Shown: positions 30,401 through 60,203, numbered from the stretch's first letter. The stretch: 64,000 bases of DNA from Thermoplasmata archaeon (GCA_041499475.1 JBGQKI010000008.1:1978-65977), one strand, 5' to 3'. Made by a program: numbers and translations. The notes: generated by a model from the sequence alone, not told the origin.

Positions 30401-30943
30401 CAAGGAGGGCATCTCGGAGAGCCAACCGTCGATGGGCCCGACGCTTTTTGCCGGGACCAAGACGTTTCCGTTGTTGTCGAATTTCTCGTAGCCGATGGTA
30501 TCGGCATTCACGCCGAAGGTCACGTGGATGTTCCCTTGGGAATCAATTCCGCCAGCCGGGCCGAGAGGAAATTCCGCCCCAAACGGCGCCATCACACGGT
30601 CCGTGATGTAGGTCTCGGCCTGCTCGGTGGTGCCCGTGAGCCCCGTCCTGCCGTAGTAATACGACCCGTTTCCTCCCGTCGTCTTCTTCCATAGGAAGTC
30701 CACGGACTGGTCCGCGCGGCCATACGCCTGCGGTTCGATGTTATTGACCGCGCTGTTCGTGATGCGGATGTCGGTCGTCCACGTGCGCCCGCCGAGGAGC
30801 TCGGTGCCCACCGTCATCGGCGCGGGTGACGAGGAGGCCTCGGCGCTTTCGAGCGGGAATGCGGCGGCGAGGACGGCAAGCGCCAATCCGGCGCATGCTA
30901 CCCGCTTCGCGGGGGAACAAACCGAGTTCACCCTTTCCCGCAC
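27413..30943 (-). CDS. giant (1176 aa) cell-surface protein with C-terminal TM anchor and Pro-rich cytoplasmic tail
   Basis: Signal peptide ACAGLALAVLAAAFPLESAEA. beta-rich ectodomain with CARDB/NPCBM-like units. C-terminal TM LVFAAGLLAFAVVMV + RERRRK + P-rich tail. Confidence 0.8.
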   Translation of the reverse strand: MRERVNSVCSPAKRVACAGLALAVLAAAFPLESAEASSSPAPMTVGTELLGGRTWTTDIRITNSAVNNIEPQAYGRADQSVDFLWKKTTGGNGSYYYGRTGLTGTTEQAETYITDRVMAPFGAEFPLGPAGGIDSQGNIHVTFGVNADTIGYEKFDNNGNVLVPAKSVGPIDGWLSEMPSLAVGTDDTIHIANGDCRFQCEDIVYDKLANDGSEVWTNRVVSSDIGSVSSFALIKAERFSGSVLFTFGSLKGSWLGRADKYGVKDLPSIKYRTTNDVKVADVDATPDGSMHLVWEDGGNLYYTLVNASGSKLADAVQVVSGATVGPFPRIAAASDNRVAIVWQDNRTGSSQLMYSIFKSGDNPAFATQVRLTNSTGDAVDPTLFFDPYDDLVVAWSDSRDGNREIYLKRTLHCSVELFGEPVTLAGMSFLHPNETKLTPLTVRNKGGLIDNFTVSLRYSAGADAAGWVISLNRTDLRALAPDGLADVGLSLHAPATARSGDNISLTVNASGSDPSCFDEIQLSAFVQVTRSLKLTGYTGTKPGEAGDTIAFGLVVTNMGDVREDDIRLEHILGTGSPDWNVSFDKSTAALDSKASTNFTVFAAIPANAQCLGDISFGIVAYPANMPNGGDSLQLTIACRPSLNLSVSADPVLQLADPGAVARFAITVASQGNVATSLEMRVQGSAGPLPSFFAPFDREVFTLGPASSSLVVFSAPVPFNATAGTRVTFHITALSRQYGTNASVNVTVGVSTICGVHLLLPSSAQALQGPVTTIELYATNTGNSPQSVLPTVAYTPPGWGARLTFDGASPLPIAVAGRASFSLEVAPSSEPTAGPYGIGIQLASGDCGTVASTLQVTVPSRPGIEVRALNDVAGAPPGGEVSFDVVIRNAGNVITAYSVLAATSPETFPLSLAVLADDGVTELPLQGAIVLAGGQQAVLRVRVGIPRDTTSDLARVTLRVHATPSLNSSLVLTAVVQRPDLLVLGLVSDPPRPSAGDATRLSFDLSNVGNARSRGGVVYVSFDGAPSADLGFSSLGPGEAVRFTVDWVASEGLHELRFEAVEDSSGTELKTDNNALVAYVHVGGSGSGAGASGAPIETAAGTLVFAAGLLAFAVVMVRERRRKASSLEAKNTAFGPVAPTAERAMPKGPAPPPSPGVPPPTAPGPPRAHGPLRRIRK

Positions 30944-37917: not shown

Positions 37918-38604
37918 GTGGCTCAAACCGCCGTGAGCGGCGAAGGCGCAAAACTGCAGCACCTCCACGCGCTGAAGCACCTCGCGCTGCTCGGCGGCAC
38001 CAAGAAGCCGGTGCGCGTCTCCTCGCGGGAGTTCGCCGAGGCGATGGGGGCGTCCCAGCAGGCGGCTTCGGCCGTGCTCCTCGACCTCTACAAGCTCGGC
38101 CTCATCAAGCGCGAGATCACCTCGCGCAAGCAGCACATCACGCTCACCGACGCGGGGGTGGCCGCCCTTGCCCGCGAGCACGCAGACCTTCGCCGGATCT
38201 TCGAGCCGCAGCGGGTCGTGGACATCGAGGGCACGGTCTCCTCGGGCCTTGGCGAGGGCGCCTATTACATGGCGCAGGAAGGATACGCCCGCCAGTTCGA
38301 GGAGCACCTCGGCAGCCGCCCGGTGCCCGGCACCTTAAACCTCAAGCTCGACGGCGACGAGCTCACCAAGCTCCAGATGCTCGATGCCGCAAAGGGGATC
38401 GACATCACGGGCTTCACGGACAGGAACCGCACCTTCGGGGGCGCGAAGCTCTTCCGCTGCGAACTTAGCGGCGTCGAGGGCGGCGTGGTGATCCCGCTCC
38501 GCACGCACCACCGTGACATCATGGAGATTATCGCGCGCAAGCACCTGCGCCGCACGCTCAAGTTGAAGGATGGCGACAAAGCCCTCGTCAAAGTATTCGT
38601 CTAA
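37918..38604 (+). CDS. ribK: CTP-dependent riboflavin kinase with N-terminal wHTH (archaeal RibK)
   Basis: GTVSSGLGEGAYY, PGTLNLKLD, GGAKLF, IPLRTHH, EIIA..HLR and LKDGD motifs match the MJ0056-type kinase. N-terminal wHTH as in fused archaeal forms. Confidence 0.85.
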   Translation: MAQTAVSGEGAKLQHLHALKHLALLGGTKKPVRVSSREFAEAMGASQQAASAVLLDLYKLGLIKREITSRKQHITLTDAGVAALAREHADLRRIFEPQRVVDIEGTVSSGLGEGAYYMAQEGYARQFEEHLGSRPVPGTLNLKLDGDELTKLQMLDAAKGIDITGFTDRNRTFGGAKLFRCELSGVEGGVVIPLRTHHRDIMEIIARKHLRRTLKLKDGDKALVKVFV

Positions 38605-41982: not shown

Positions 41983-43362
41983 ATGGGGTTTGCTCCTGCG
42001 CTGCCGACTCTCCTGCCTTCTCCTTTGGAGGAGGCGGCGGTGGGCGCCCTATTCTACCTCACCGACACGCCGGGCACCTTCGGGCGAATCAAGGAGGAGC
42101 CGGAGGACTTCGTCGTCGTCGAGCGCACGAAGTGGCCGCCGGAGGCCGCGGACGGCAATTACCTCGCGCTCGAAGTGCGCGCCCGCAATTGGGAAGCCAA
42201 CCGGCTCGCGGGGCGCATCGCGCGCGAACTCCAAGTGTCAAGGACCAGGATCGGGTTTGCAGGGACGAAGGACAAGCGCGCGGTCACGACCCGCGGGTTC
42301 ACGGTCCGCCTCGACCAGCCGACGGCGCGGGTCGTGCGCCTACCCGACGTCGAAGTGCTGCGCTCGTTCCGGACGGCCCGGCCCCTCGGGCTTGGCGACC
42401 TCACGGGCAACTCGTTCGACATCCATGTGACGGGGTTCCCCGGCGCGGCCGAGGAGGGGGCGGCAAAGGCCCGCGCTACCTTCGCGGCGGCAGCGGCGCA
42501 GGGCGGATTTGCCAATTTCTTCGGGACGCAGCGCTTCGGGAGCCTCCGGCCCGTCACGCACACCGTGGGCGCGGCGCTGGTCGAGGGTGATTTCGCGGGC
42601 GCGGTTCGCGTATATCTGGGGTCGCCGTCGGCCTACGAGACGGAGGACGTGCGGGCGTTCCGCACGGCCTTCCGGAACGGCACGCCGCCCATCGAACTGT
42701 TGCGGGCGATGCCGCACCACCTTTCGTTTGAGCGCCAACTTCTCGAGGCGCTTGCCGCCGAGCCCGACAAACCGCTCGCCGCCATCGAGCGGCTCCCGCG
42801 CAACCTCGCGCTCATGTTTGTGCACGCGCACCAGTCGGAGCTCTTCAACCGCGTGCTCTCGCAGCGTCTGGTGCGTGGTCTGCCGCTTGCCGCGCCGGTC
42901 GTGGGCGACCTTGTCGTGGTTTTGGAGGAAGGCGGGAGCGCGCTCGAGGACTCCCCAGTCGCGGTCACGGAAGCCAACCAGACCAAGGTCGCCCGGCAGG
43001 TGGAGCTTGGCCGCGCGGCCGTGACCGGGCTCGTGCCCGGCGCCGAAGTGGCTTTCGCGTCGGGTGAGGCTGGCGAGATCGAGCGGAAGGTGCTCGAGGA
43101 CGCGGGGCGGACCGCAGCCCAGTTCGTAATCCCCGACCTCCCGCGGCTCACGACCCGCGGTGTCCGCAGGCCGCTTGCGCTGCGGCCGACCCAAGTCCAG
43201 ATTGACGCTGGCCAGGCGCGCAGTGCGCCCGCCGTGCGCCTCCGGTTCGAGCTCCCCCGGGGTTGCTACGCGACCGTCGTGCTTCGCGAGGTCATCAAGC
43301 GTCCGGAAAGCGCCTGGGCGCGCGAGTCCGCTACTGCGGTCGCCCTCGACGACGCACGGTGA
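41983..43362 (+). CDS. truD: tRNA pseudouridine(13) synthase TruD
   Basis: GTKDKRAVTTRGFTV (TruD motif II with catalytic Asp). FGTQRFG motif. Archaeal TruD length. Confidence 0.85.
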   Translation: MGFAPALPTLLPSPLEEAAVGALFYLTDTPGTFGRIKEEPEDFVVVERTKWPPEAADGNYLALEVRARNWEANRLAGRIARELQVSRTRIGFAGTKDKRAVTTRGFTVRLDQPTARVVRLPDVEVLRSFRTARPLGLGDLTGNSFDIHVTGFPGAAEEGAAKARATFAAAAAQGGFANFFGTQRFGSLRPVTHTVGAALVEGDFAGAVRVYLGSPSAYETEDVRAFRTAFRNGTPPIELLRAMPHHLSFERQLLEALAAEPDKPLAAIERLPRNLALMFVHAHQSELFNRVLSQRLVRGLPLAAPVVGDLVVVLEEGGSALEDSPVAVTEANQTKVARQVELGRAAVTGLVPGAEVAFASGEAGEIERKVLEDAGRTAAQFVIPDLPRLTTRGVRRPLALRPTQVQIDAGQARSAPAVRLRFELPRGCYATVVLREVIKRPESAWARESATAVALDDAR

Positions 43363-46300
43363 AGACCACGCCCGCCGCGGCGGCCGCGACGGCCGCGAGC
43401 ATTGTCGCCTGCACCGCCAGGCCGGTCTCGTACGCCCTGGGCGGCGCGGTGGCGGCTTCGCGCACCACAATCGTCACGTTGCCTTGCGCGGCTTGCAGGC
43501 CGTCGGAAACGGTCACCGGAATCGTCGTGGCGCCGTCGGGAAGCGCCGCGATGTCCGATGCCGCAAGCGAGAGCCGGCCCGCCTCGGAGAGGCTCCCCCG
43601 GTTCGACAAGGTCGAAAACACGACGGGGTCGCCATCGGGGTCGACCGCAAGCAGCGTGAAAGCGGCCGGCGACCCCCTCGTCACGACAAGGTCGCCCATG
43701 TCGACCAAACGGGGGGCGCGGTCGGCGGGCAGCACTGAAATCAAGAAAGGAGCGCTCGCCGTCATCTGCGCGGCGTTTCGCACCGTGATCGCGAATTGCC
43801 ACGAGCCAACGACCGCCTCCCCGGGCACGAAGGTCACGGCGCCGCGCGCGTCGATGGGCAGCGTCGGGAACGGCCCCGCGCCCGAGTTGGAGGAAGCAAA
43901 GGTCAGGTTGCCGCCCCCGGGGTCGCTTGCCACGACCGTGTAGACAAAGGGGACGCCTACGACCGCGACCTGCGGAGGGGGCGCCTCGATGACGGGCGCG
44001 CCGGGGTGGGCAAACACGGTGAAGGCGGTTGTCGTCGAGCTCGTCTCACGGCCGTCGGAGACGGTGAGGCGCACGGAGCCCACGCCCGACCAGTGCGGGC
44101 GCGGGTAGGCCATGAGCCGCACGCCATCGACCCACACCGAAAGCTCGCTGGAGGTCGCGGTCGCGGTGAAGGTCAGCTGGTCGAAGGGCGTGTCGGGGTC
44201 CGAAGCGAAGCCGCGCAAGTCCGCGATGGCGGCGGTGGGCGGTGCGTCTTCATCCACGAACACCGCCGGCAGCGTGAAGAGCGCGGGGCCCTGGCCGGCG
44301 CGCACCGCGAACACGACCCCGTTGTTCGACTCGTTGAACTCGACGATCTCGCGGCCCGCGTCTGCGGTGATCACGAGCGAGAAGTTCCCGGCCTCGGGGG
44401 CAAGCACGTTGAACGAAAACGCGCTTTGCGTGGCGGAGGCCGCGGTGTTGCCTTGGGTCACGGCTGAACCGTCGGCGCGGCGCAGCTCGTAGCCGATGAG
44501 GTACGACCGCGGGACAAGTCCCGACCGACCCACGAGCCCTGTGACCGCGATTGCGCCGCCGGGCGCCACCTGCCCGGGCGGGTTGAGCGAAACGCTGCCC
44601 GCGTCGAGCCACAGGTCGACGCCCGAGGCCTCCACGGGGATCGTGACCTCGTTGTTGAGCTCGTCAAATTCCGCCACGGTGTTGCTGGGGTCAACCACGA
44701 CCCGAAGTTCGTGCAGGCCGTCCTGCGTGGGCGTCCAGGTAAAGGAGCCGGTCCATTCCTCGCCGGGGCTTAGAGCCGGGATGAGCACGGAAGGCGCCAC
44801 GAGTTTGGGCAAACCGCCCGGCGGCGTCACGTAGGCGCGCGCGTCGGTCGCGGCCGCGCTCTGCTCGCCCACGTTGCGCACCGTGAAGTACACCGTGGCG
44901 GGGTCGCCCGTGCGAAGGACGGGGGAGGGCAGCGTCACATTCTGGGGTTCGATCGACAGGTCGGCGGGCGCCGTCTGCACGGGGATCGAAATCTGGTAGG
45001 GGATGAAATTGTGGAGCGTCGTGGTCACGAGCAGCGAGCCTGTCGTTGTCGGCGACACCACGGTGTCGATTCGCCCCTGCGCGTCGGCGGTCCCCACGGC
45101 AAAGACCCCGCCGCCGGTGACCGCGACGGCGGCTCCGGCCGCCGGCCGCCCAAGCGTGTCCCGAATGGTCGCCCGGAAATGCTGCTGGGCGGTGTAGAGC
45201 ACGGGCGGCATCGAGGCGTTGAAGCTCGAAGCGACCTGCGTCCAGATCGGCACCTCAGGGTCGCCAAGCAGGTTGTAGACGGCCTTCTGCAAACGGTAGG
45301 CTCCGTACGACTGGTCACGCCCGACCGCGGTAAGGTGTGCGGCGTAGTCGCGGATCCCCTGGTAGAGGGCGGGCCCCGGCCGGAACGGCTCTGGACCTGT
45401 GAAGAAATTCTTCCAGAAGTCCTCGGACTGCCACCAATTCCCGTCGCGGATCCCGAATTTGACATATTCGGCTTCGCCGCGGAAGGTCCCGTCGGTCGGC
45501 ACGACCTCGGCGATGAAGCCGTGGTTGTCTTGGATCATGAATCGGCCGAGGTTCGGCAGCGCGGGGTTCGAGAAATTGCCCACCAGGCAAGACGAGAAGT
45601 AGCCGAGGCTGAGCTCCCCGAAATTCGTAAGGCCGGCGGCATCCGTGTAGTCGAGGCCGTTACTCCAAGAGTAGGCGACGCCGTCGAAGCCGGTGTACTG
45701 AGGCACTCCGTGGCCTGAGGGGACCCATCCGTGGGTTACCGAGATGACTATGGACTTGCCGGCGTTGATCGAACCCACCATACTCACGTTCGAGAGGCGG
45801 TCTTGAGCCGTCGTGTAGTTGCCACCAGGGAGCTCGTAGTAGTCCGCGAGCAAGTCGAGGCTCATCGTTGGGGGGAGGTAGGCTTGCGTGTTTTGCACGG
45901 AGCGCAGGGCGTTGTCGTTCCAAGAATCATAGAGCGTCGGGTCGTTTGGCGGGTCCATCACGGATGCAAACGCTGCGGCGCTCGCCATCCACGGACCGAC
46001 GAAAGGGGCCTTTTCGTACGACAGGAGGTTGTCCCGTGCAAAGCCTGCCTCGGCGGCGCTGTTGAACGGTAGCCGGCCGACGTACACATCGGCGTCCCAG
46101 TCCTCCTCGCCGTACTCACCGTACATTCCGTTCCCGTTTTGGTCCCAGTCCGACCCAAGCCCGGCATAGTAGACATCCGAGAAAACGAGGTCGTGGGTGT
46201 AGCCGCCTGGAACAGTGGCGCTTGCGTTGGTGAACAGGTAGCGGATGGGGATTACGGCCGCGCCGCCGCCCAAAAGGACATACTTCAGGCCCTTGCCCGT

Positions 46301-46693
46301 TGCGTTCCAGTAGACATCCTGCAGGAAATTGTGGAGCTTCTCGGCGTCGTCGCGCCCGGCGAAGGACTGCTTGATGTCCTCGATGAGGGCCACGCGGGCG
46401 GGCAGGCCCTTTTGCGTCTTCCAGTCGGCGATCGACTGCATCGCTGAAGCGTAGGCGGCGGCGGTGACGATGAGGTACTTCGTGGTGGCGAAGCTCGCGG
46501 CATCAATGACGATCTGCGGGGTGGGTGCGAAGGGTTGTCCGTCCGGGGGCGAGGGCGTGGCGGCAGCCGCTGCGAGGCCGGCAAGTGCAACCGGCAGGAG
46601 GAATAGGAACGCGGCCCCGAATGAGGCCGCCGCGCGAGGGTGATTATGGCCGCGGACAGGGCTCTGTGACATCGTCCTTTGCCACGCTGGCAA
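43331..46693 (-). CDS. giant (1120 aa) surface protein with gingipain-like peptidase C25 domain + CARDB/Ig-like domains + C-terminal TM anchor
   Basis: Signal peptide. C25-like N-terminal domain (KYLIVTAAAYASAMQSIADWK, SDVYYAGLGSDWD, VYVGRLPF, THGWVPSGHG, FSSCLVGNF with candidate His/Cys dyad). CARDB-like units. C-terminal TM + RRRGRPQ. Confidence 0.8.
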   Translation of the reverse strand: MPAWQRTMSQSPVRGHNHPRAAASFGAAFLFLLPVALAGLAAAAATPSPPDGQPFAPTPQIVIDAASFATTKYLIVTAAAYASAMQSIADWKTQKGLPARVALIEDIKQSFAGRDDAEKLHNFLQDVYWNATGKGLKYVLLGGGAAVIPIRYLFTNASATVPGGYTHDLVFSDVYYAGLGSDWDQNGNGMYGEYGEEDWDADVYVGRLPFNSAAEAGFARDNLLSYEKAPFVGPWMASAAAFASVMDPPNDPTLYDSWNDNALRSVQNTQAYLPPTMSLDLLADYYELPGGNYTTAQDRLSNVSMVGSINAGKSIVISVTHGWVPSGHGVPQYTGFDGVAYSWSNGLDYTDAAGLTNFGELSLGYFSSCLVGNFSNPALPNLGRFMIQDNHGFIAEVVPTDGTFRGEAEYVKFGIRDGNWWQSEDFWKNFFTGPEPFRPGPALYQGIRDYAAHLTAVGRDQSYGAYRLQKAVYNLLGDPEVPIWTQVASSFNASMPPVLYTAQQHFRATIRDTLGRPAAGAAVAVTGGGVFAVGTADAQGRIDTVVSPTTTGSLLVTTTLHNFIPYQISIPVQTAPADLSIEPQNVTLPSPVLRTGDPATVYFTVRNVGEQSAAATDARAYVTPPGGLPKLVAPSVLIPALSPGEEWTGSFTWTPTQDGLHELRVVVDPSNTVAEFDELNNEVTIPVEASGVDLWLDAGSVSLNPPGQVAPGGAIAVTGLVGRSGLVPRSYLIGYELRRADGSAVTQGNTAASATQSAFSFNVLAPEAGNFSLVITADAGREIVEFNESNNGVVFAVRAGQGPALFTLPAVFVDEDAPPTAAIADLRGFASDPDTPFDQLTFTATATSSELSVWVDGVRLMAYPRPHWSGVGSVRLTVSDGRETSSTTTAFTVFAHPGAPVIEAPPPQVAVVGVPFVYTVVASDPGGGNLTFASSNSGAGPFPTLPIDARGAVTFVPGEAVVGSWQFAITVRNAAQMTASAPFLISVLPADRAPRLVDMGDLVVTRGSPAAFTLLAVDPDGDPVVFSTLSNRGSLSEAGRLSLAASDIAALPDGATTIPVTVSDGLQAAQGNVTIVVREAATAPPRAYETGLAVQATMLAAVAAAAAGVVFTVRRRGRPQ

Positions 46694-48288: not shown

Positions 48289-51200
48289 CTACTGGAGAAG
48301 ATTGTCGAGGTCTTTGTCTTCGTCGTCGGCTCCTTGGGCGCCCCGCGAGGCTGGTTTGGGCGGAGCGCCGCCGCTTGATGGCTTCGGCGCTCGCGCCGCC
48401 GTCTGCGGGGGCACATGCTCCTTGTCGGCGCCCTTCCTCCGCATGACGATAAAGCCCACCACGCCGGCTCCGACGAGGAGCAGGACGAGCAGCGGGACCG
48501 TGAGGTCGCCGCCGGTGGTGGTCGTGTTCGACGGCGCGGCATTCGTGACGGTGACCGTGAGTTCCGAGGTGCCGACGTTTCCGGCGGCGTCGCGCACCGA
48601 GAGCGTGACCGCGTAGCTCCCGGGCTTTTCAAAGACAAAGCTCGGCGAGAAACCGGAGAGGCTCTTCAGCGTCCCGTCGTAGGTGAAAGTCCAAGTGAAG
48701 CGGCTGGGGTCATTGACGGGGATGCCGCCGTCGGTCGCTGCGCCCACGAAGGTCACAGGTGTCCCCACGACGGCCGTGAGGTGGTCCGCGCTTGCCGTGA
48801 CCGCCGGAGGCGTCGTGTCCGGCGCCACGACGCGCACCACGAAGTTGCGCGCCGCCACGTTGCCCGCCGCGTCGGCGGCGCGCACGGTGACCGTGTAGTT
48901 GCCTTCATCGGCAAACATGAACGCGAACACGGTCCCCGCCCGCTGCACCGGCGACCCGCCATAAGTGAAACTCCAGGTGACGTTCCCCGTCGTTGCAAAA
49001 TTGGGGTCGTTGTCGGTGACCGCCGCCGTCAGGTTGACCCACGCGCCCGCCGCGATCGACTGGTCGGCAATGGCAGGGATCGTGGGCGCCGTGGTGTCTG
49101 GGGGGTTTGCCGTGACGGTGAGCGAGTCGGTGCCGATGTTGCCCCATCCATCGACGACGAAGAGCGTGATGAGGTAGCTACCCGCTGCGTCGAACTGGTA
49201 AGTGAAGTTGAGACCCGACAGGTTGCGCGGCGCGCCCCCGTCGGTGAAGGTCCAGTAGGCGGCCGAACCGGCCGGGAAGGCAGGGTCGTTGTCCGTTGCG
49301 GTGCCGCGGAAGGCGACCGCGGTGCCGGTCGTGGCGACCTGGTCGGCGCCGGCGTCGACCACCGGCGCGATCTTGTCAGGCTTGTCGACCGTGACCGTGA
49401 CGGTGTCCTGGCCGAGGTTCCCCCAGAAGTCGAGGCAGAAGAACATCAGGTCGTAGGTGCCAAGCGACCAAAACGTGAAGTTGAACGAGGTCCCGTTGAA
49501 GCTGTGCGACGACCCGTTGTAGGTGAAGGTCCACCCGCAGGTCGCGCCGAGCGGGAAATTCGGGTCGTTGTCGGTCGCCGAACCGGAGAAGGAGGCGACC
49601 TGTCCTGCAAGCACCGTGCGGTCGGTCCCGGCGTTCACGGAGGGCGGGGTCGTGTCGGGGGAGACGACCGTGACCTTGACAATGTCGGTACCGAGGTGCC
49701 CCGTTGGATCGCGGGCCGAGAGGGTGACATTGTAGGTTCCCGGCGTCCAAAACGTAAAGTTCCCCGTTACGGCCGGTGAGGCAAACGCGCCGGGCACGGT
49801 GACGAGCGAGCCGTTGTAACGGAACGACCAGTCGGTGGTGCCGTTGAGGACAAAAGCGAGGTCGTCGTCGACCGCCCTTCCGGAGAAGTTTGCAATCGTC
49901 CCCGCGGCCACCGTGAAATCAGCGCCCGCGTCGACGGAGGGCGGCGTAATATCGAGGACATGGACGACGAACCAGTGGTTGGCGAAATTGCCGGCGCCGT
50001 CCACAACGACGAGCCGGACGTCATAGTCGCCCGGGAACGCGCTCGTCCACGTCGTGCTCTCGGCGTGGATCACGTCGAGGATGGCGGGGCCGCGGTAAAC
50101 ATTCCAGGTGTACGTCCCGTCGTTGTGGAATCCCAAGGAGTCGTCGTACGCGTGCGTGGTGAAATTGGCAAGCTCGGAGGTGTTGATCGTGATGTCGTCG
50201 GGCCCAAAGACCTGGGGCGGCGTGACGTCGGTCGTCGGGGTGAAATCCGAGAGGGCGTTGCCGGGTGCGATCGTGACCCAATTCAGCGCGCCCATCGTGG
50301 GCCCGTCGGGCGAGGCGAGCAGAGAGAGGGACGGGACGACCGCCAGCACCAGCGTGTAGTTCGTCGTTGGCCAATAGGAGGGCACCTGCACCGGCCCGAA
50401 GAATTCGCGGCCGGGGCCCTTCACGAGCGCGTTGATGTACGGCTGGTCGTGGCCCGTCCAGATGTCGTAGCTCTCCGTGAGGCCGCCGAACAGCTTCTCG
50501 ATCGACCCGGGGATCAGCGCGGCCCCGCCCTCGAAGCCCGACATGTTCTTGTTGCCTGTGTACTTCGTGCCCACGCCGAACGGCGAGCCGATCGCGAGGG
50601 GCTCATTGAGGATCTGAAGGTTCGTGTCGAGCACTTGGCGCGCGTAGCTCGTGTTGTAATCGGGCAGAGCGACCTCCGCGTCTTCGGCCCAGAAGCGGCC
50701 GTCGCTCGCGCTGCTGTCGTTGCCGATGGCCGCCCGGAACGTCACGTTGATTCCGTTGTTGTACAGGTCGTCGGTGGTGGCCGGCAAGGCCGAGAAGTCG
50801 ATTGCCACGGAAATGTTCCCGGTGGCGTCCGTCGTCGTGTTGGTTTCGAAGATTGGGCCGCGCGAGGACGAAACGAGGACGACCACGGGCTTGCTGGCCC
50901 AAAGGGAGGCGTTGTTATACAGCTGGTAGTCGAGCCTCTGCACGCCCGACCACGGGAGCAACGAAAAGTTCTGCAGGGGAATCGCGTCGAACCGGCCGCT
51001 CCCGGGAGAGGGCGGCGTGTAGTCCGCGGGCAGGCTGAGGGACGCGGCCACGAACTGCGACTTGCCGCCCGAGGCGTTTACCCACCCGCGAACATCCATC
51101 TGACTCGTCCCGTCGTTTGCAAGCGAGAACGCGAGGTTTCCTGAGGAATCGGTTTGGCCGGTGATCTGGCCGATGCGGTGTGAGGGGACCCCCGATTCGG

Positions 51201-52044
51201 TAAGGTTCAGCGTCACGTCGAGGCCCGCTAAGGCCGCGACACCATTGCCGATGGTGAGCTGCCCTTGGATGAGGCTCTGGTTGTGGAGGGCGTACGCAAC
51301 GACGGTGTCGAAAAACCACACATCCACCGACGCGTTTACCCGGGCGAAGCTCGACTCGTTGACGGTCGCCTGGAGGATGTACTGCATCGAGGTCGTAAGG
51401 TTGGAGGGGACGGTGAAGTTGGCCTCGTAGATGCCTGTGGCGGCCTTCACCGGCGTGAGCATGACCGGCGTCTCGCTGTAGTCCACGTCCGGCGCGGCGT
51501 ACAACGCGAGCGTGAGGCTCGGCGCGTCGGCGTGTGTGCCGGCGTCGTACGTGTCGACCCGCCACACCATCTTCTCGCCGGGGTCGACGGTGCGGCCGAG
51601 CCGGTAGGTGTTGTTGAGGCCGGCCGTGATTGTCCACGGCCCGCTCGGCCCCGGCAGCGTTGGGGCCGGCGCCGTTGCGACGAACCTGAACGAGTTCGCG
51701 GTGTCGTTGCCGTTCCGCACGGTCACGACGAGGCCGCTTAGCCCAAGGACCGTGTCGAAGAAGCCCATCGTTACGGTCGCGCGGTAGAGGCCGGTCGAGT
51801 TGTTATAGAAGCCCGGGAAGTTCGTGGCCGGGAATACATTGTTGATCGTTCCGAGGCCAAAGCGGAACGTGACGCTCGTCGCGTTTGCAGGGACCAAGCC
51901 GAGGTACACCTGCGCGTGCACCTCGAAAGTCTCCCCCTGGACTTTGCCTTCGGCGCTGTCGTTCCAGAGCACGACGCTTAAGGGGTAGTGGCTGCCCGCC
52001 GACGAAAGTCCCGAGAAGAGGTTGAGGACAACCAGGGCGGTCAA
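48289..52044 (-). CDS. giant (1251 aa) surface protein with ~6 tandem PKD domains and C-terminal TM anchor
   Basis: Signal peptide. Repeated PKD-like units (TPPSV(D/N)AG(A/T)D..V.AG....F.G.A.D.D). C-terminal TM LLVLLLVGAGVVGFIVM + RRK + charged tail. Confidence 0.85.
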   Translation of the reverse strand: MTALVVLNLFSGLSSAGSHYPLSVVLWNDSAEGKVQGETFEVHAQVYLGLVPANATSVTFRFGLGTINNVFPATNFPGFYNNSTGLYRATVTMGFFDTVLGLSGLVVTVRNGNDTANSFRFVATAPAPTLPGPSGPWTITAGLNNTYRLGRTVDPGEKMVWRVDTYDAGTHADAPSLTLALYAAPDVDYSETPVMLTPVKAATGIYEANFTVPSNLTTSMQYILQATVNESSFARVNASVDVWFFDTVVAYALHNQSLIQGQLTIGNGVAALAGLDVTLNLTESGVPSHRIGQITGQTDSSGNLAFSLANDGTSQMDVRGWVNASGGKSQFVAASLSLPADYTPPSPGSGRFDAIPLQNFSLLPWSGVQRLDYQLYNNASLWASKPVVVLVSSSRGPIFETNTTTDATGNISVAIDFSALPATTDDLYNNGINVTFRAAIGNDSSASDGRFWAEDAEVALPDYNTSYARQVLDTNLQILNEPLAIGSPFGVGTKYTGNKNMSGFEGGAALIPGSIEKLFGGLTESYDIWTGHDQPYINALVKGPGREFFGPVQVPSYWPTTNYTLVLAVVPSLSLLASPDGPTMGALNWVTIAPGNALSDFTPTTDVTPPQVFGPDDITINTSELANFTTHAYDDSLGFHNDGTYTWNVYRGPAILDVIHAESTTWTSAFPGDYDVRLVVVDGAGNFANHWFVVHVLDITPPSVDAGADFTVAAGTIANFSGRAVDDDLAFVLNGTTDWSFRYNGSLVTVPGAFASPAVTGNFTFWTPGTYNVTLSARDPTGHLGTDIVKVTVVSPDTTPPSVNAGTDRTVLAGQVASFSGSATDNDPNFPLGATCGWTFTYNGSSHSFNGTSFNFTFWSLGTYDLMFFCLDFWGNLGQDTVTVTVDKPDKIAPVVDAGADQVATTGTAVAFRGTATDNDPAFPAGSAAYWTFTDGGAPRNLSGLNFTYQFDAAGSYLITLFVVDGWGNIGTDSLTVTANPPDTTAPTIPAIADQSIAAGAWVNLTAAVTDNDPNFATTGNVTWSFTYGGSPVQRAGTVFAFMFADEGNYTVTVRAADAAGNVAARNFVVRVVAPDTTPPAVTASADHLTAVVGTPVTFVGAATDGGIPVNDPSRFTWTFTYDGTLKSLSGFSPSFVFEKPGSYAVTLSVRDAAGNVGTSELTVTVTNAAPSNTTTTGGDLTVPLLVLLLVGAGVVGFIVMRRKGADKEHVPPQTAARAPKPSSGGAPPKPASRGAQGADDEDKDLDNLLQ

Positions 52045-52234: not shown

Positions 52235-53041
52235 ATGCGCGTCGGTGTCGTGGGTTGCGGCTCGATCGGGGGCACGCTTGCCCGAAAGCTTGCCCGTTTT
52301 CCCGCGGTCGACCGCATCTCGTTCTTCGACGTGGAGTTCGCGCGCGCCGAGGCGCTGTCGAGCCTGCACCGCCGCTACCGCGCCGTGCGCACGCTCAAAG
52401 CGCTCATCGCAGGGAGCGACCTGGTCGTCGAAGCGGCTTCCCAGAAGGCGGCCCGCGAGGTTGCCCCCGCCGCCCTCGCCGCCGGAAAAAACGTGCTCCT
52501 CATGTCGCTCGGGGCGCTGTGCGACGACCGGTTCACTGCCCGCCTTCGTCGCAACGCCGCGCGCACCGGGGCGCGGATCTACATCCCTTCGGGCGCGCTC
52601 GCTGGTCTCGAGGCACTTGCGAGTGCGAGCGCGGCAGAGGTCACGCAGGTCACGCTGACCACCCGCAAGCCGCCGCGCGCGCTTTCCGGGGTCGCTTACT
52701 TGGAACGACGCGGGATCGACGTGGGATCGGTCCGCGCCCCCACGGTGGTGTTCTCGGGCACGGCACGCGATGCCGTCCGCCACTTCCCGGCGAACGTAAA
52801 CGTCGCCGCGGCGCTTTCGCTTGCCGGCCTCGGCTTCGACCGCACGCGCGTGGTTATCATCGCTGACCCGAAAGCGACCACCAACCGCCACGAGGTCGTC
52901 GCAAAGGGGGCATTCGGCGAGCTTCGCTGCGAAGTGTCGAACCTCCCTTTCCCGGACAACCCCAAGACCTCTTACCTCGCCGCCCTTTCCGCCGTGGCCA
53001 CCGTGCGAAACGCAGCACTCGGCATCCACTTCGGGCCGTGA
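52235..53041 (+). CDS. nadX: L-aspartate dehydrogenase (NadX)
   Basis: MRVGVVGCGSIGG Rossmann N-terminus and TM1643-like C-terminal domain (HFPANVNVAAALSLAG). Confidence 0.85.
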   Translation: MRVGVVGCGSIGGTLARKLARFPAVDRISFFDVEFARAEALSSLHRRYRAVRTLKALIAGSDLVVEAASQKAAREVAPAALAAGKNVLLMSLGALCDDRFTARLRRNAARTGARIYIPSGALAGLEALASASAAEVTQVTLTTRKPPRALSGVAYLERRGIDVGSVRAPTVVFSGTARDAVRHFPANVNVAAALSLAGLGFDRTRVVIIADPKATTNRHEVVAKGAFGELRCEVSNLPFPDNPKTSYLAALSAVATVRNAALGIHFGP

Positions 53042-53080
53042 CGCGCGCTGTTCCAGGAATCAAAGGAGCGCACCAAGTCC

Positions 53081-53088
53081 TTTAAATA
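53081..53088 (+). promoter_or_regulatory. consensus archaeal TATA box TTTAAATA for the membrane-anchored HTH protein gene
   Basis: Centre ~27 nt upstream of GTG 53112, which begins a canonical signal peptide, so the transcript is leaderless. Confidence 0.5.
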
Positions 53089-53111
53089 GCCAGCATCGAC
53101 GCCTCGCGCTC

Positions 53112-56100
53112 GTGGCACGCGCACGCGTCGCCCTCGTGGGGCTTGTTACTCTTTCTTTCGTCCTTACCCTTGTTCCTACCTCGCTTGCGGCCCCGGTAGG
53201 CCTGCAAGCGCTTACGGGCGCCATTGCGGGCGCCGATCGTGTGGACCTCGTCGCGATCCCCGGGGGGGGCCGCATGCTCCTTGCAGCGGTGGGCCCGCAA
53301 CGGGCGGCCTTCTTCGAGGTCGCGGAAGACGGCTCGCTGCCCGCACTCCCGCTCGCCTCCTTCGATCTGATCGCCCAGCGCGACGAGCCGCCGCTTTCCG
53401 GCGCGCGCCTCGCCGTCCTTTCGCAGGAGCGCGCCGCGATTGCCTATGTCCGCGACGGCTCCGTGCGCATCCTTGTCGCCGACCCGTTCTCGGGGATGGC
53501 ACTCTCCGACGCCCGCGTGAGCGGGGCCAGCGAAACGGCGTCGTCGCCCTCGCTTGCTGTGGCGGGCGACGGCTTCGCGCTCGCATACCTCAAAGCCGAC
53601 AGCACAGGCCGCACCGCCGTCGTTGTGCAGCTCACGGCCCAAGGGGCCGAGCTTTCGCGGGCGAGCCTCCCGCTTGCCGGGGGCTACTCCGCGGCCCTTG
53701 TTGATTCTTCCCCAAACCTGCTCCTTGCCGTGCTGCGCGCCTCGGCCATTTCTCTATACAGCGTGGCCGCGGGGTCGCTTGCGGGGGCAGGCTCCATATC
53801 GGTCACGGCGTCGGGCGGCGCCCTCTGGACCCGCGACGGTTCGCTGCTTGGACTCCTTTCGACAAGCTCGGGGCTCGCGCGGATGCTCGCGCCGGTGTCG
53901 GCTCCCGCGAGCGCCACCTTCACGACGCTTGCGCTCGGCGCAAGCGCCCTCCAGGTATTCGCCATCGACAGCGCCGACGGGCGCCTCGTCGCCGTGGTGC
54001 GCGGCGCCTCCTCTTCGGTCGCGGTGCGTGAAGACACCCTCGGCGGCTACGCCATAAGCGCGCTCGGGACCGTTGCGGGCGCTGCCGCGGCGACCGACGC
54101 GTATGGCTTTGCTCGGGCGGCCGTGCTCGTTGGCTCATCGGCAGCGCCCGCCGTCGAGACCTTCACGGCGGGCGACTTCGACGCGGTCGCGGTCGCGATT
54201 TCCGGCCCCTCCTCGGTCGAGCCCGCCTCATCGGCGACCTTCTCGATTGCCGTCCGCGCGGTGCGCTCCGCGGTCACGGTCGTGGGAATCGATGTCGCCG
54301 TCCCGCTCGGCTGGACCTTGCACGCGCCCTCGGTCGCCTTGCCCCTTGCAACCGGGCAGAGCGCCTCCCTCACTTTCACCGTCGGTGCCCCCGCAGGGAC
54401 GCCCGTGGGCGCCTACACCGTATCCGCGCGCCCCGCCGTCCTAGAGGCGAGCTATGTCCAAGCCGCGGTCGCCACGGTCGCGGTGCTTGCAGGCGCGACG
54501 GTCTCGCCCGCGTGCTGCTCCTCGCCGGTCGACCTTGCCCCCGGCGGCTCCACGACCGTCACCGTCGGCCTCCTGAACCGCGGCGCCGCCCCGGTCGTCT
54601 CCGAGGTGAGCGCCCTTGCGCCGGCGGGCTTCATCGTGACCCCGTCGACCTCGAGCGTTTCGATTTCCCCGGGCGCCTCCGCGCAGGTCTCGTTTACGGT
54701 CAGCGCCTCGCAGGGCACGCTCCCGCAAGACGGCGGGAAGTTCACCGTGCACATCCGCCCCACGGACGGGTCGGCCTCGACCGACGTGGTCGTCCCCGCC
54801 CGCATCCGCGGCGTCTTTGCGCCGGTGCTGAGCGGCATGGCCCGCGACCTTAGCGGCGTCCCCGGAGCGACCGTCGACCTGCCATACTCCATCGTCAACG
54901 CCGGCAACATCGGCGGCCTTGTTGTCCTTGGCGCGGCCGTCGACGGCCTGCCCGCGGCCACCCTCGTCGGGCTCCAAGCTACGCTCTTCGTCCCCGCCTT
55001 CACGAAGGTCGACCTGCCCGTGAAGGTCGCCATCCCGCAGGGCACCCCTGCGGGCACACCCTTCGAAGTCACAGTGTCCGCGTTCAACGCGCAGAACGGC
55101 GACCCGGCCGGAGTGCCCTTCTCCATGTACGGCACCGTGCGCGCGGTCCCGGCGTTCGTGGCGAGCTACACGCCGGGGCCCGCCGTGCTTCCCGGGGCGG
55201 AGGCTCGCGGCACGCTCGCGTTTTCCAACTCGGGGAACACGGCACTCACCATCGACCTCGCGCTTTCTGCCGCGGAAGCGGGGTTCAGCCTGCGCGTCGC
55301 CGACGGCGCGACCACGGGGATTTCATTGCCCCCAGGTGCCGCCATCTCGGTCCCTATTTCGTACCGCGCCGGGCCGGCCGCCCTGCCCGGTACTCGCGCT
55401 TTCCAAATCACAGCCACCTCCACCGCGGGCCTTTTCGTTGCCATCGACATCCCCGTCAAAGTCTTGGCCACCCACGGCATCTCGCTGGCGGTCTCCGCCC
55501 CTGCAGCCCTCTCCCGCCCCGACACACCCACGGCCGGGCTTGACTTCGTCCTGTCGAACTCCGGAAACACGGAGGCCGGCGTCGCGCTGACCTTCTCGAC
55601 GGCGCTTGCGTCCCTATCGACGGTCGCTGACGGCCAAGCGCGGCCGGTTGCCGACCCGCTCGCCCTCCAGACGGTACCGCCCTTTTCTTCCCTCTCGTTC
55701 CACGCGAATGTCGCCCCCGCGTTCCTTGCTGGTGAAACGCAAGGGGCCGTCCGCGTGAATGCCGAATCCAACATGGGCGACAGCGCCTCGGCCGTGGCCA
55801 CCTTCGAGCGCCTGCGCAGCGACCCCGCGATCCTCTCCCTTTCCGCTCGCCCCGTCAACGGTCCGGCCGCCGCAGGCACCCTGCACCAGGTCGTGGCCGA
55901 CATCGCAAACGCGGGCCCCGGGACCGCCGTCGGCCTCGAGGCTGTCCTCTCGTCCCACGGAATCGTCCTCGGCCGCGTCTCCATCGACGCGCTGTCGCCG
56001 GGCACCTCGCGCCTCCTCGACAACCTCTTCTTCGTCCCCCGTGAGGCCTCCACCGACCTTGTCCTTACGCTTACTTCGGCCGAGAGCGGCCTCGACCGCG

Positions 56101-56771
56101 ACCTGGGCAACAACCTCGCCTCGGCCACGGTGACCGTGTCGGTGCCGAGCACGGCAGGCGACGCCTCCACCCGCGCCGCGCTGCCCGTCGCCGCAACCTC
56201 CCTCTCGATCGTCGCGCTCGCGGGGCTCGCCCTCACCGAGATCGGAAAGAGCACCTTGATATCCGTGCTGTTTCTCCCTCTCTACGTGAAGCTGCGCCCC
56301 GAGGATGTCCTCGACCAGTACCTGCGTGGCCAGATCCACGGGTTCATCATTGCAAACCCGGGCGAACACTACAACGCCATCAAGGACCAGCTCGGCGTCA
56401 CCAACGGTGCGCTCGCCTACCACCTGCGCGTGCTCGAGCGCGCGCAACTCATCCGCGCCGTGCGCGACGGGATGTACAAGCGGTTCTACCCGATCGGCGT
56501 CAAAGTCACCCGCAAGCGCCGCCTCTCCCCCTTCCAGACGGCGATCGTCAAGGCCGTGCGCGACAACCCCGACGTCTCGCAGAAGCGCATTGCCGAACTG
56601 CTCGGCGTCTCCAACCAGGTGGTTAACTACAACGTGAAGCAGCTCGAGGAGGCACGCATCCTTGCCGTCGACCGCACCGAGCGCGCGTCGAAAGTAACGC
56701 TCGGCCCTGAGGCGCCCGCCCTCGAAGGCGCCCCGCCGGTTCCGCCCTCGGTCCAGCCCGCCTCCCTTTGA
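53112..56771 (+). CDS. membrane-tethered transcription factor: signal peptide + ~1,000-aa ectodomain (CARDB/NEW3-like Ig repeats) + single TM + two C-terminal cytoplasmic winged-helix HTH domains
   Basis: ORF 52821..56771. The start is placed at GTG 53112, after the nadX stop and preceding signal peptide ARARVALVGLVTLSFVLTLVPTSLAAP. TM LSIVALAGLALTEIG...LISVLFLPLYV near aa ~1080. wHTH 1: YNAIKDQLGVTNGALAYHLRVLERAQLIRAV. wHTH 2: VSQKRIAELLGVSNQVVNYNVKQLEEARILAV. Confidence 0.75.
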   Translation: MARARVALVGLVTLSFVLTLVPTSLAAPVGLQALTGAIAGADRVDLVAIPGGGRMLLAAVGPQRAAFFEVAEDGSLPALPLASFDLIAQRDEPPLSGARLAVLSQERAAIAYVRDGSVRILVADPFSGMALSDARVSGASETASSPSLAVAGDGFALAYLKADSTGRTAVVVQLTAQGAELSRASLPLAGGYSAALVDSSPNLLLAVLRASAISLYSVAAGSLAGAGSISVTASGGALWTRDGSLLGLLSTSSGLARMLAPVSAPASATFTTLALGASALQVFAIDSADGRLVAVVRGASSSVAVREDTLGGYAISALGTVAGAAAATDAYGFARAAVLVGSSAAPAVETFTAGDFDAVAVAISGPSSVEPASSATFSIAVRAVRSAVTVVGIDVAVPLGWTLHAPSVALPLATGQSASLTFTVGAPAGTPVGAYTVSARPAVLEASYVQAAVATVAVLAGATVSPACCSSPVDLAPGGSTTVTVGLLNRGAAPVVSEVSALAPAGFIVTPSTSSVSISPGASAQVSFTVSASQGTLPQDGGKFTVHIRPTDGSASTDVVVPARIRGVFAPVLSGMARDLSGVPGATVDLPYSIVNAGNIGGLVVLGAAVDGLPAATLVGLQATLFVPAFTKVDLPVKVAIPQGTPAGTPFEVTVSAFNAQNGDPAGVPFSMYGTVRAVPAFVASYTPGPAVLPGAEARGTLAFSNSGNTALTIDLALSAAEAGFSLRVADGATTGISLPPGAAISVPISYRAGPAALPGTRAFQITATSTAGLFVAIDIPVKVLATHGISLAVSAPAALSRPDTPTAGLDFVLSNSGNTEAGVALTFSTALASLSTVADGQARPVADPLALQTVPPFSSLSFHANVAPAFLAGETQGAVRVNAESNMGDSASAVATFERLRSDPAILSLSARPVNGPAAAGTLHQVVADIANAGPGTAVGLEAVLSSHGIVLGRVSIDALSPGTSRLLDNLFFVPREASTDLVLTLTSAESGLDRDLGNNLASATVTVSVPSTAGDASTRAALPVAATSLSIVALAGLALTEIGKSTLISVLFLPLYVKLRPEDVLDQYLRGQIHGFIIANPGEHYNAIKDQLGVTNGALAYHLRVLERAQLIRAVRDGMYKRFYPIGVKVTRKRRLSPFQTAIVKAVRDNPDVSQKRIAELLGVSNQVVNYNVKQLEEARILAVDRTERASKVTLGPEAPALEGAPPVPPSVQPASL

Positions 56772-56876
56772 GGCACCCAGGGTTCCACGACCCGGCATCC
56801 GTCCACTGGCAAGCCTTCATAGCCCCATCGGTTATTGCTGGTAATTGCGCCCCAACGGGCACCGGATCGTGTTATC

Positions 56877-57605
56877 ATGATGGCCCGCGGACACCCCATC
56901 AAGACGTACATCGACGGCCTCGACGAGCGCCTCCACGGCGGCATCCCGTTTGGTAACGCCGTGCTCATCGCGGGCACCTCTGGCACCATGAAGTCGACGC
57001 TTGCCTACTACATCCTTTACCACAACGCCAAGGCCGAGCGCAAGGACGCGATCTATGTCACCTTCGAGCAGTCCAAAGATTCCATCATCCAGCAGATGAA
57101 CGCGCTCGGGCTGCCTTATGACGGCGTCAAGGACTACCTCAACATCCTCGACATGGCCACCATGCGAGGCGAGATCGACGACTTCGGCGTGAAGACAACC
57201 TGGATCCAGATGGCCCAACAAGCGATCAAGGACACCTACGACCGCCACGGCGCCGACCTCATCGCATTCGACTCCCTCGGGATCTTCCAGCTGGTCGCGG
57301 GGCTCGAGCAGCCGCGCGCGCAGCTCTACCAGTTTGTCAAGCGCATCAAGGGGTTCGGCGCCACTTCGTTCTGGATCTCCGAGATGGACGCCGGCTCGCA
57401 GAAATACGGTCGGTGGGACGAGGACTTCCTCATGGACGGCGTGCTCCACGTCACCCAGCAGCACCGCCGCGAAACCGACTTCGAATTCTGGATGCGCATC
57501 GTCAAGATGCGCGGGGTCGCCCACGAGAAGAACTACCTCTCGCTCAACTTCGGGGCCAACGGGTTTTCGGTGGCGAAGATCATCACCGACGAGAAGCTGA
57601 AGTGA
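56877..57605 (+). CDS. KaiC/RecA-superfamily single-domain ATPase
   Basis: Walker A GTSGTMKST. Walker B LIAFDSLG. KaiC-like length (~243 aa). Confidence 0.85.
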   Translation: MMARGHPIKTYIDGLDERLHGGIPFGNAVLIAGTSGTMKSTLAYYILYHNAKAERKDAIYVTFEQSKDSIIQQMNALGLPYDGVKDYLNILDMATMRGEIDDFGVKTTWIQMAQQAIKDTYDRHGADLIAFDSLGIFQLVAGLEQPRAQLYQFVKRIKGFGATSFWISEMDAGSQKYGRWDEDFLMDGVLHVTQQHRRETDFEFWMRIVKMRGVAHEKNYLSLNFGANGFSVAKIITDEKLK

Positions 57606-59608: not shown

Positions 59609-59742
59609 GTGCCGGATTTCCTCCCGCTTTCCCCGAAATTGTCGCTTCGCGGCAAGAACCGCGCACAATTTCGCGCCTTGAAGGAAGGGTATTTGAGAAT
59701 GAGCCTCGCCATGATGGCACGCCGTGTCTGTGCGCCCTAAGG

Positions 59743-59750
59743 AATTAAAT
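59743..59750 (+). promoter_or_regulatory. TATA box (AATTAAAT) upstream of the 59796 gene
   Basis: Divergent intergenic region 59609..59795. Confidence 0.4.
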
Positions 59751-59795
59751 AGTGAAGTACCGGAGAGGGCGCCTGCCCCTCGGGGGAGTTCTTCT

Positions 59796-60203
59796 ATGGC
59801 CGCTTTTCGAATGTCGAAGGAGCACCGGATCCTCACCGTGGAGGACCTCACCCAGGCGATCCTGAATTCGATCGACCGCGAGGACATGGAGCCAGAGGCC
59901 GCCCGCCACATGGCCAACCACGTGCTGAACTTCTTCGGCTTCAACGACACGATCATCGACAACATCCTCGAGCCCGAGGACCGCGACGCCTTCTACATGC
60001 TCGAAGACCTCGGGCTGCTCCAGACCGAGCGCGAGGAGACCACGCTCTACGACGGCCGCGAGTGGCGCATCCACTACTGGATGTTCAAGAAAGACCGCAT
60101 CTACGAGCTCGTCAAGGACGAGGACGAGGACGCGGAAGCGGTCGGCGATGTCGATGTGTACGCCGATGTCCCCGAGGACATCTGGGCGCGGACGCAGCAC
60201 TAG
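59796..60203 (+). CDS. conserved-looking acidic hypothetical protein (135 aa)
   Basis: Protein-like, highly acidic C-terminus. Start at the internal Met preceded by a TATA box. Confidence 0.6.
   Translation: MAAFRMSKEHRILTVEDLTQAILNSIDREDMEPEAARHMANHVLNFFGFNDTIIDNILEPEDRDAFYMLEDLGLLQTEREETTLYDGREWRIHYWMFKKDRIYELVKDEDEDAEAVGDVDVYADVPEDIWARTQH

Follow-up and report, generated by a model that had tools for sequence, protein, structure and literature searches.

We examined a 64,000-nucleotide stretch of DNA from a Thermoplasmata archaeon (GCA_041499475.1, JBGQKI010000008.1:1978-65977), hereafter referred to as the window, focusing on a long gene of its + strand (53112..56771) that encodes a 1219-aa protein in which a predicted signal peptide, a very large ectodomain and a single predicted transmembrane (TM) helix precede two C-terminal winged helices. 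The gene is intact, belongs to a large family of conserved architecture and displays a charge asymmetry consistent with a cytoplasmic tail. DNA binding, the ligand and the activation step are inferred, and we propose that the protein is probably a type-I, single-pass transmembrane one-component transcription regulator, whose family is almost entirely composed of Thermoplasmatota members in our sample. A KaiC-like ATPase gene follows on the same strand (56877..57605).

The gene, its promoter and the encoded domains

The longest open reading frame (ORF) delineated mechanically on the + strand spans 52821..56771, and its first 290 nt overlap the 3' end of nadX (52235..53041; Asp_DH_C match in Pfam, 3.6e-38), which lies upstream in another frame, as the initial annotation had pointed out. 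Within this overlap, the GC content of the long-ORF frame is 0.63 at third codon positions (GC3) and 0.76 at second positions (GC2), which is not coding-like, compared with a GC3 of 0.75-0.91 in every 300-nt interval from 53112 to the stop; the part overlapping nadX is therefore non-coding in the long-ORF frame. A TATA box, TTTAAATA (53081..53088, +), occurs only once on both strands of the window, for 0.09 occurrences expected, and an in-frame GTG is located 23 nt past it, at position 53112. Four orthologous loci (L001, L002, L004 and L005) have kept the box, with a GTG 22-24 nt further on. This unique box and its conserved spacing thus support a leaderless GTG start and a 1219-aa product, in agreement with the start proposed initially, and the gene is probably leaderless. 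By comparison, the copy of the protein publicly available at NCBI (P0001, 100% identical, 1165 aa) has its start annotated at the internal Met55 (window 53112-53274), and hence lacks the signal peptide. The start of the gene is thus mis-called in database copies while, conversely, the mechanical ORF is over-extended into nadX.

Directly 5' of the TATA box lies a 19-nt element, ATCAAAGGAGCGCACCAAG (53059..53077, +), which is exactly conserved in L001, L004 and L005 and aligned in L002, in genes whose ectodomains are just 33-78% identical. This conservation designates it as a candidate operator or upstream activating site, possibly autoregulatory. The element is unique in the window even when up to 3 mismatches are allowed, and since no second copy was found elsewhere in the window, no regulon could be proposed. 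The gene itself contains no tandem DNA repeats of note, and neither Rfam families nor tRNAs were found in the 64-kb window.

The reading frame is uninterrupted, with a GC3 of 0.79-0.91 throughout 55800-56700 that remains uniform across 56000-56300, the interval where the initial annotation considered that a frameshift or an assembly join could have fused two genes. No such accident was found. A JGI homolog (P0002, 1219 aa) is collinear and 81% identical over 100% of the length; L002, L003, L004 and L005, from other assemblies, are equally collinear, with invariant residues spanning the junction between ectodomain, TM helix and winged helices. Altogether, independent JGI and NCBI assemblies of at least 5 related genomes are collinear across this junction which, together with the uniform GC3, excludes a frameshift or an assembly join. 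The signal peptide, ectodomain, TM helix and two winged helices thus belong to a single gene, as initially described.

The N-terminus of the protein looks like a Sec signal peptide (residues 1-26, MARARVALVGLVTLSFVLTLVPTSLA followed by AP; 53112..53189, +), with two Arg in the n-region, a hydrophobic segment from residue 4 to residue 27 that peaks in Kyte-Doolittle hydropathy at residues 4-9, and a predicted cleavage between SLA and AP. Hydrophobic N-terminal segments are also found in most full-length relatives. The mature ectodomain, about 1,000 aa long and acidic (isoelectric point, pI, of 4.8; net charge -19), had been described as a succession of Ig/CARDB-like repeats, and the peptides quoted to that effect are present at residues 703 and 812. 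This description holds for the stalk (residues ~359-1010; 54186..56141, +), in which Pfam matches (NPCBM_assoc (NEW3) at 385-440, FixG_C at 484-553 and CARDB at 919-988), strands predicted by AlphaFold2 (AF2) and Foldseek comparisons delineate about six Ig-like beta-sandwich domains. It does not hold for the first ~300 residues, which form a separate all-beta domain in the AF2 full-length model (residues ~43-320; 53238..54071, +), with about 28 beta-strands and a predicted local distance difference test (pLDDT) score mostly between 64 and 88 by block. This N-terminal domain has no match in Pfam, is common only to a narrow orthogroup and, judging from the model, may be propeller-like. Foldseek searches with the full-length model retrieved only generic multi-Ig, alpha-2-macroglobulin and integrin alpha structures, from which no function could be assigned.

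Residues 1024-1042 (56181..56237, +) are the sole strongly hydrophobic internal segment of the protein (Kyte-Doolittle ~2.0 in a 19-aa window, about 1022-1042) and fold as a helix in the AF2 model of the C-terminus. Most of the 126 family members scored have this TM helix 37-41 aa ahead of the ANPGEHY motif, and a near-fixed spacing between TM helix and C-terminal module was recorded for 126 of 132 members. It is followed by a juxtamembrane segment, EIGKSTLISVLFLPLYVK (residues 1043-1060; 56238..56291, +), predicted as helical by AF2 and carrying the family motif T-E-x-G-K ... P-L-Y-x-K/R, conserved at 80-90% among 113 members, a level above that of the TM helix; it was not recognised as any known motif. 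The possibility of a second TM helix at 1048-1060 was dismissed, the uncharged run being 9-14 residues long (median 12) and too short for a membrane crossing.

Topology was judged from hydropathy and from charge statistics over the family. Over the 126 members, Lys+Arg and Asp+Glu amount respectively to 1.0 and 1.8 in the 15 residues preceding the TM helix, and to 5.7 and 3.4 in the ~39 residues following it. In the window protein, the tail has a pI of 9.8 and a net charge of +8, against the pI of 4.8 of the ectodomain. This charge asymmetry, the contrasted pI values, the short second hydrophobic run and the N-terminal signal peptide all favour a cytoplasmic location of the winged-helix tail, which is where the initial annotation had placed it.

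Two winged helices form this tail, as first proposed. Winged helix 1 (residues 1063-1136; 56298..56519, +) is ArsR-like and matches the Pfam family HTH_HVO_0163_N (PF24266) at 1072-1136 with 39 bits for a cutoff of 31, while winged helix 2 (residues 1137-1197; 56520..56702, +) is MarR-like and matches HTH_24 at 1141-1181 with 47.6 bits for a cutoff of 21.9; a match to HTH_20 was also obtained (38.6 bits, cutoff 27). The AF2 model of the last 199 residues (pLDDT 84.8, above 90 in winged helix 1) comprises the TM helix, the juxtamembrane helix and two winged helices of helix-helix-helix-strand-strand (H-H-H-E-E) topology. Compared to PDB with a profile of the module, winged helix 1 retrieved 5duk_A, a 77-aa "putative DNA binding protein" (E 9.5e-9), and winged helix 2 the MarR/ArsR regulators AdcR, SlyA and ArsR. 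Both domains display an SxHLxxL-type recognition-helix signature and both are basic, with net charges of +5 and +3 in the window protein and of +4.8 and +4.0 across 113 members for winged helices 1 and 2, respectively. The tail contains no Cys, and its score against the ArsR/SmtB metalloregulator family (NF033788 HTH_metalloreg) is 26 bits for a cutoff of 55, so it is ArsR-like in fold and signature only.

Family size, distribution and ectodomain diversity

The family was searched with the C-terminal module as query, and then by comparing a profile exhaustively with 1.84 billion cluster representatives; at least 1,390 proteins, each standing for a 50%-identity cluster, were recovered at E<=1e-30, and 5,207 when the threshold was relaxed to E<=1e-10. 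The homologs retrieved with the module query are Thermoplasmata proteins sharing the layout TM-TExGK-PLYxK-wH1-wH2 (wH, winged helix), and the signature of the family comprises the TM helix, the TExGK...PLYxK/R motif, winged helix 1 (NGxLAYHLxxLE) and winged helix 2 (QVVNYH). The window protein carries all elements of this module family, as LTEIGK, LPLYVK, ANPGEHY, NGALAYHLRVLE and QVVNYN. Among those of the 150 listed proteins (177-1568 aa) that have a sufficient length to locate it, the module is almost always C-terminal.

Scanning one genome per species, we kept 80 loci out of 120 confirmed relatives, almost all from Thermoplasmata, Methanomassiliicoccales or unclassified euryarchaeal metagenome-assembled genomes (MAGs). 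Several genomes are represented repeatedly, CP070751.1 by as many as 4 paralogs. A homolog search for the ectodomain-TM-winged-helix architecture had been recommended at the outset, and this layout is present in 79 of the 80 loci, where the module closes a long ORF (the longest reaching 2,721 aa) and a TM segment is located about 50 aa upstream of it. The opinion that such a design is rare in archaea does not withstand these counts, nor the detection of transmembrane transcription regulators (TTRs) in 367 of 404 archaeal species, at about 4 per genome (Demey et al. 2023, PMC10269533). The sole bacterial record among the 80 loci is a 289-aa member carried by a "Candidatus Aminicenantes bacterium" chromosome (L010; CP070825.1, 1489862-1510365), which represents either a horizontal transfer or a mis-binned or chimeric assembly.

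On this constant tail, paralogs display ectodomains of NosD/beta-helix, PKD (seven copies), WD40 propeller or CARDB/NEW3 types. Within the narrow orthogroup of the window protein, ectodomains are 33-50% identical versus 73-80% for the tail. The constancy of the tail, while ectodomain types are swapped and diverge faster, is indicative of sensor-like domain shuffling. Soluble stand-alone copies of the module also exist (P0026 and L062). Family members are labelled "winged helix-turn-helix transcriptional regulator" in databases, and our literature search found no paper describing a Thermoplasmata family of tethered twin winged-helix proteins. No paralog of the winged-helix module, nor of the KaiC-like protein, was detected elsewhere in the window.

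Proposed function and alternative explanations

The mechanism that we propose associates interchangeable extracellular binding domains with a constant cytoplasmic module, made of the TM helix, the TExGK...PLYxK motif and two basic winged helices. The acidic ectodomain, with its propeller-like head and Ig-like stalk, would bind an extracellular macromolecule or a surface, and the twin winged helix would in turn govern transcription. A pair of ArsR-like winged helices carried by a single chain would mimic an ArsR homodimer, and the tail could bind its operator as a monomer.

Two modes of activation may be envisaged by analogy with other systems. Proteolytic release of the tail under the control of the signal, as in Notch or RsgI, is slightly favoured, albeit tentatively, because the pseudo-dimer requires no ligand-induced dimerisation, because conservation is higher in the juxtamembrane motif than in the TM helix, and because soluble stand-alone modules exist. 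Action while bound to the membrane, as for ToxR, CadC or ArnR, would be nearly as likely. More speculatively, the family may represent the main outside-in signalling device of Thermoplasmatota, in which the ectodomain would bind a polymer or a surface, cleavage would occur near TExGK...PLY, and the released twin winged helix would bind operators such as ATCAAAGGAGCGCACCAAG; we regard this broader scenario as doubtful.

Several points weigh against this interpretation, or limit it. Both putative recognition helices, and that of winged helix 1 especially, are unusually conserved across paralogs, a pattern that is atypical for regulators with different targets and that fits a common partner or a non-specific role. 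Searched against PDB with Foldseek, the tail retrieved generic tandem winged-helix and MarR structures with TM-scores below 0.35, including the non-DNA binders ScpB and ESCRT-II, and none that would assign a function. Clustering of the ORFs from 81 neighbourhoods revealed no protease, kinase or other conserved partner gene, the only recurrent associations being subfamily synteny, for instance the presence, in 15 related loci, of a helicase-like (Lhr-like) protein of ~1,800 aa. The full-length AF2 model is of moderate quality (pLDDT 66, predicted template modelling score of 0.35, from a 6-sequence alignment). Lastly, the DNA binding of the tail, its targets and the ligand of the family are all putative.

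In one alternative, the protein would not regulate genes at all, and would instead be a surface or adhesion protein whose tail serves as a protein-binding adaptor or as a sequence-independent tether between membrane and nucleoid. In its favour, the tandem winged-helix adaptors ScpB and ESCRT-II are found among the structural neighbours of the whole tail. Moreover winged helix 1, down to its putative recognition helix NGxLAYHLxxLE, is nearly invariant among over 100 paralogs whose ectodomains are unrelated, as a shared partner would lead one to expect, winged helix 2 being more variable. PKD, CARDB, beta-helix and WD40 ectodomains are also typical of adhesins and surface-layer proteins, and the window is rich in giant surface proteins. 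Nevertheless, the sequence matches of the tail are ArsR/MarR DNA-binding regulators, with the SxHLxxL-type signature in both domains; both winged helices are basic; soluble stand-alone versions exist; and a specific conserved element lies beside the gene's own promoter. We therefore consider the adaptor or tether unlikely, and retain transcriptional regulation as the probable function.

A further alternative involves the gene located 105 nt past the stop of the regulator gene on the same strand, which encodes a single-domain KaiC-like ATPase (56877..57605, +; 242 aa from its ATG), as had been noticed from the outset. Its membership of the KaiC-like superfamily is supported by PF06745 (9.3e-36; 123.8 bits for a cutoff of 26.6), and it shares with archaeal KaiC-like ATPases (PF06745; ArlH/FlaH, TIGR03880/03881) one RecA-like KaiC domain and a Walker B DS. 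It is nevertheless below every NCBIfam equivalog cutoff, and far below those of KaiC and ArlH (96/408 and 45/215, respectively). With one domain and 242 aa, it is not a circadian KaiC (NF006799, 96 for a cutoff of 408; TIGR02655, 71 for 546), and it is not an ArlH/FlaH either (NF052589, 44.8 for a cutoff of 215); Pfam scans of most of the larger ORFs of the window gave no archaellum-family match. Its Walker A motif, GTSGTMKS (residues 33-40), has a Met where GxxxxGK[ST] has a Gly, with the K-S pair retained. As G[TS]MKS is found in 64 of 65 homologs, along with a conserved Walker B "DS" and "FEQ", these "GTMKS" proteins form a distinct KaiC-like subfamily in which nucleotide handling may differ.

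According to this alternative, raised by the initial annotation, the regulator and the ATPase would constitute a dedicated two-gene signalling module, the ATPase modulating the regulator or being controlled by it. The shared strand, the 105-nt gap and the lack of an obvious T-run terminator between the genes are in its favour, and work cited by PMC5847659 has put forward KaiC-like ATPases as signalling hubs in archaea. A KaiC homolog at least 89% identical also directly follows the regulator in L001, L002, L003 and L005. However, adjacency is confined to these close relatives, whose C-terminal modules are 76-97% identical and among which the entire nadX-regulator-KaiC block is syntenic. L004 has an ectodomain of the same type and retains the nadX 3' end and the promoter block, but the 1.07 kb that remain of its contig downstream contain no KaiC, and a KaiC-like ORF lies within 10 kb in just 11 of 81 loci; the gene is thus not a conserved neighbour, a point that the initial annotation had singled out for verification. 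In L037 and L073, KaiC homologs 34% identical to that of the window stand 1-2 genes downstream of family members, a proximity not clearly exceeding what chance would produce.

The nearest KaiC orthologs outside the clade (P0185, P0189 and P0194; 42-44% identical) have no tethered regulator nearby, and in the MAG CSMAG_327 the ortholog P0189 and the regulator relative L007 are on different contigs. The more widely conserved context of the "GTMKS" subfamily is an unrelated block, seen in L082, L083 and L084, in which the KaiC gene is flanked on one side by Hdr-like CCG/Fe-S oxidoreductase genes and on the other by genes for a dUTPase-like protein, an ACT-domain protein and a NAD kinase, in this order. 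Finally, a weak TATA-like element, CAAGCCTTCATAGCC (56810..56824, +), is located ~55 nt upstream of the KaiC-like ATG; it resembles other promoter-like boxes of the window and has its counterpart, as CTCATAGCC or CTAATACCC, in L001, L002, L003 and L005, so that the ATPase gene may possess its own promoter and be transcribed separately. A signalling pair hence appears quite improbable, and would be limited to this narrow clade if it existed; the KaiC-like gene is best read as a lineage-specific syntenic neighbour of the regulator, and the partnership should not be propagated. Downstream, a DUF6015 gene (59724-60203, +) retains its synteny after the TiaS/KaiC region in L001 and L005. That the winged-helix region could be a separate cytoplasmic gene, artificially fused by a frameshift or an assembly error, has next to no probability given the unbroken frame and sustained GC3, the collinearity of independent assemblies with invariant residues across the junction, and the identical fusion layout of 79 of the 80 loci.

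Known systems and genomic surroundings

Membrane-bound transcription regulators are an already known general class, and the window gene typifies one of its families, which is large and annotated, yet uncharacterised. This family is a distinctive variant of the class, defined by its type-I topology, C-terminal tandem winged helix, shuffled giant ectodomains and conserved juxtamembrane motif. The window protein resembles TTRs, 56% of which are single-pass (PMC10269533), in combining a predicted TM region with a DNA-binding domain, likewise predicted, in one single-pass polypeptide. It differs from them by features of its own, namely a cleavable-type signal peptide, an ectodomain that reaches about 2,500 aa in the family, a C-terminal DNA-binding end, tandem winged helices and a family-specific juxtamembrane motif; the main text of PMC10269533 makes no mention of Thermoplasmata or of ArsR/MarR-type members. 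With ToxR, CadC and TcpP it would share a one-component logic, in which a sensor outside the cytoplasm is linked through one TM helix to a winged helix inside it. These proteins are of type II, their winged helix being N-terminal and of OmpR type (Trans_reg_C) and their periplasmic domain small, whereas the window protein has the opposite orientation, tandem ArsR/MarR-type winged helices and a very large ectodomain, and is distinguished from the ToxR/CadC type by having no Pfam match to Trans_reg_C at E<=0.01. The inverted orientation relative to ToxR/CadC suggested in the initial annotation is thereby supported, the winged helices being C-terminal and ArsR/MarR-type.

ArnR and ArnR1 of Sulfolobus acidocaldarius, which are likewise archaeal membrane-bound one-component transcription factors, were as of 2019 the only type of this kind studied biochemically in archaea (PMC6396743). 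These crenarchaeal proteins are unrelated in sequence, and ArnR consists of a helix-turn-helix (HTH) domain at the N-terminus, HAMP-like and cytoplasmic sensor domains and two C-terminal TM helices, with no ectodomain (PMC6396743). By contrast, Pfam and hydropathy analyses of the window protein indicate a reversed domain order, no HAMP match and one TM helix after the signal peptide. Winged helix 1 is related to the HVO_0163-type family PF24266 and to 5duk, which it matches at 39 bits and E 9.5e-9, respectively. According to its Pfam name, the HVO_0163-type family carries an N-terminal HTH; its members would be soluble, and are not known to carry a TM helix or an ectodomain. HVO_0163 is called "ArsR-type" in a proteomics paper, the sole mention that we found in the literature. 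As an analogy only, Notch, SREBP and RsgI-type anti-sigma factors also combine a large extracellular region, a single TM helix and a transcription-controlling tail with varied ectodomain modules. They have no sequence or fold relationship to the window protein, for which tail release is a hypothesis, with neither a cleavage site nor a protease identified.

Thermoplasmatota are abundant in sediment, soil and marine settings, and possess very few histidine kinases. Only 3 histidine kinases and 4 response regulators were counted in 11 Thermoplasmata genomes (PMC5847659), and because two-component genes are so few, a large family of tethered regulators is a plausible substitute for them. Should its members prove to regulate genes, the family would shed light on the sensing of extracellular polymers and surfaces by Thermoplasmatota, and known membrane-bound transcription factors would gain a type-I design with tandem winged helices and a C-terminal DNA-binding end. 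The family offers a testable lead on environmental sensing in Thermoplasmatota and, with ectodomains exchanged on a constant tail, would be a tractable means of identifying what these uncultured archaea detect.

Regarding the rest of the window, giant secreted or surface proteins are concentrated at 19371-24077(-), 27413-30943(-), 43331-46693(-) and 48289-52044(-), corresponding respectively to a 1568-aa FG-GAP and CARDB protein, a 1176-aa CARDB protein, a gingipain-like peptidase C25 with CARDB and a four-PKD protein. It is plausible that they are targets of a surface-sensing regulator. Two other genes resemble regulators. At 13419-16217(-), a 932-aa protein combines an N-terminal Crp-like HTH, a STAND/AAA_16 NTPase and TPR repeats, as in regulators of the signal-transducing ATPase type. 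At 37918-38604(+), a CTP-dependent riboflavin kinase domain (PF01982) is preceded by an N-terminal extension of about 100 aa and resembles the bifunctional archaeal regulator/kinase RbkR.

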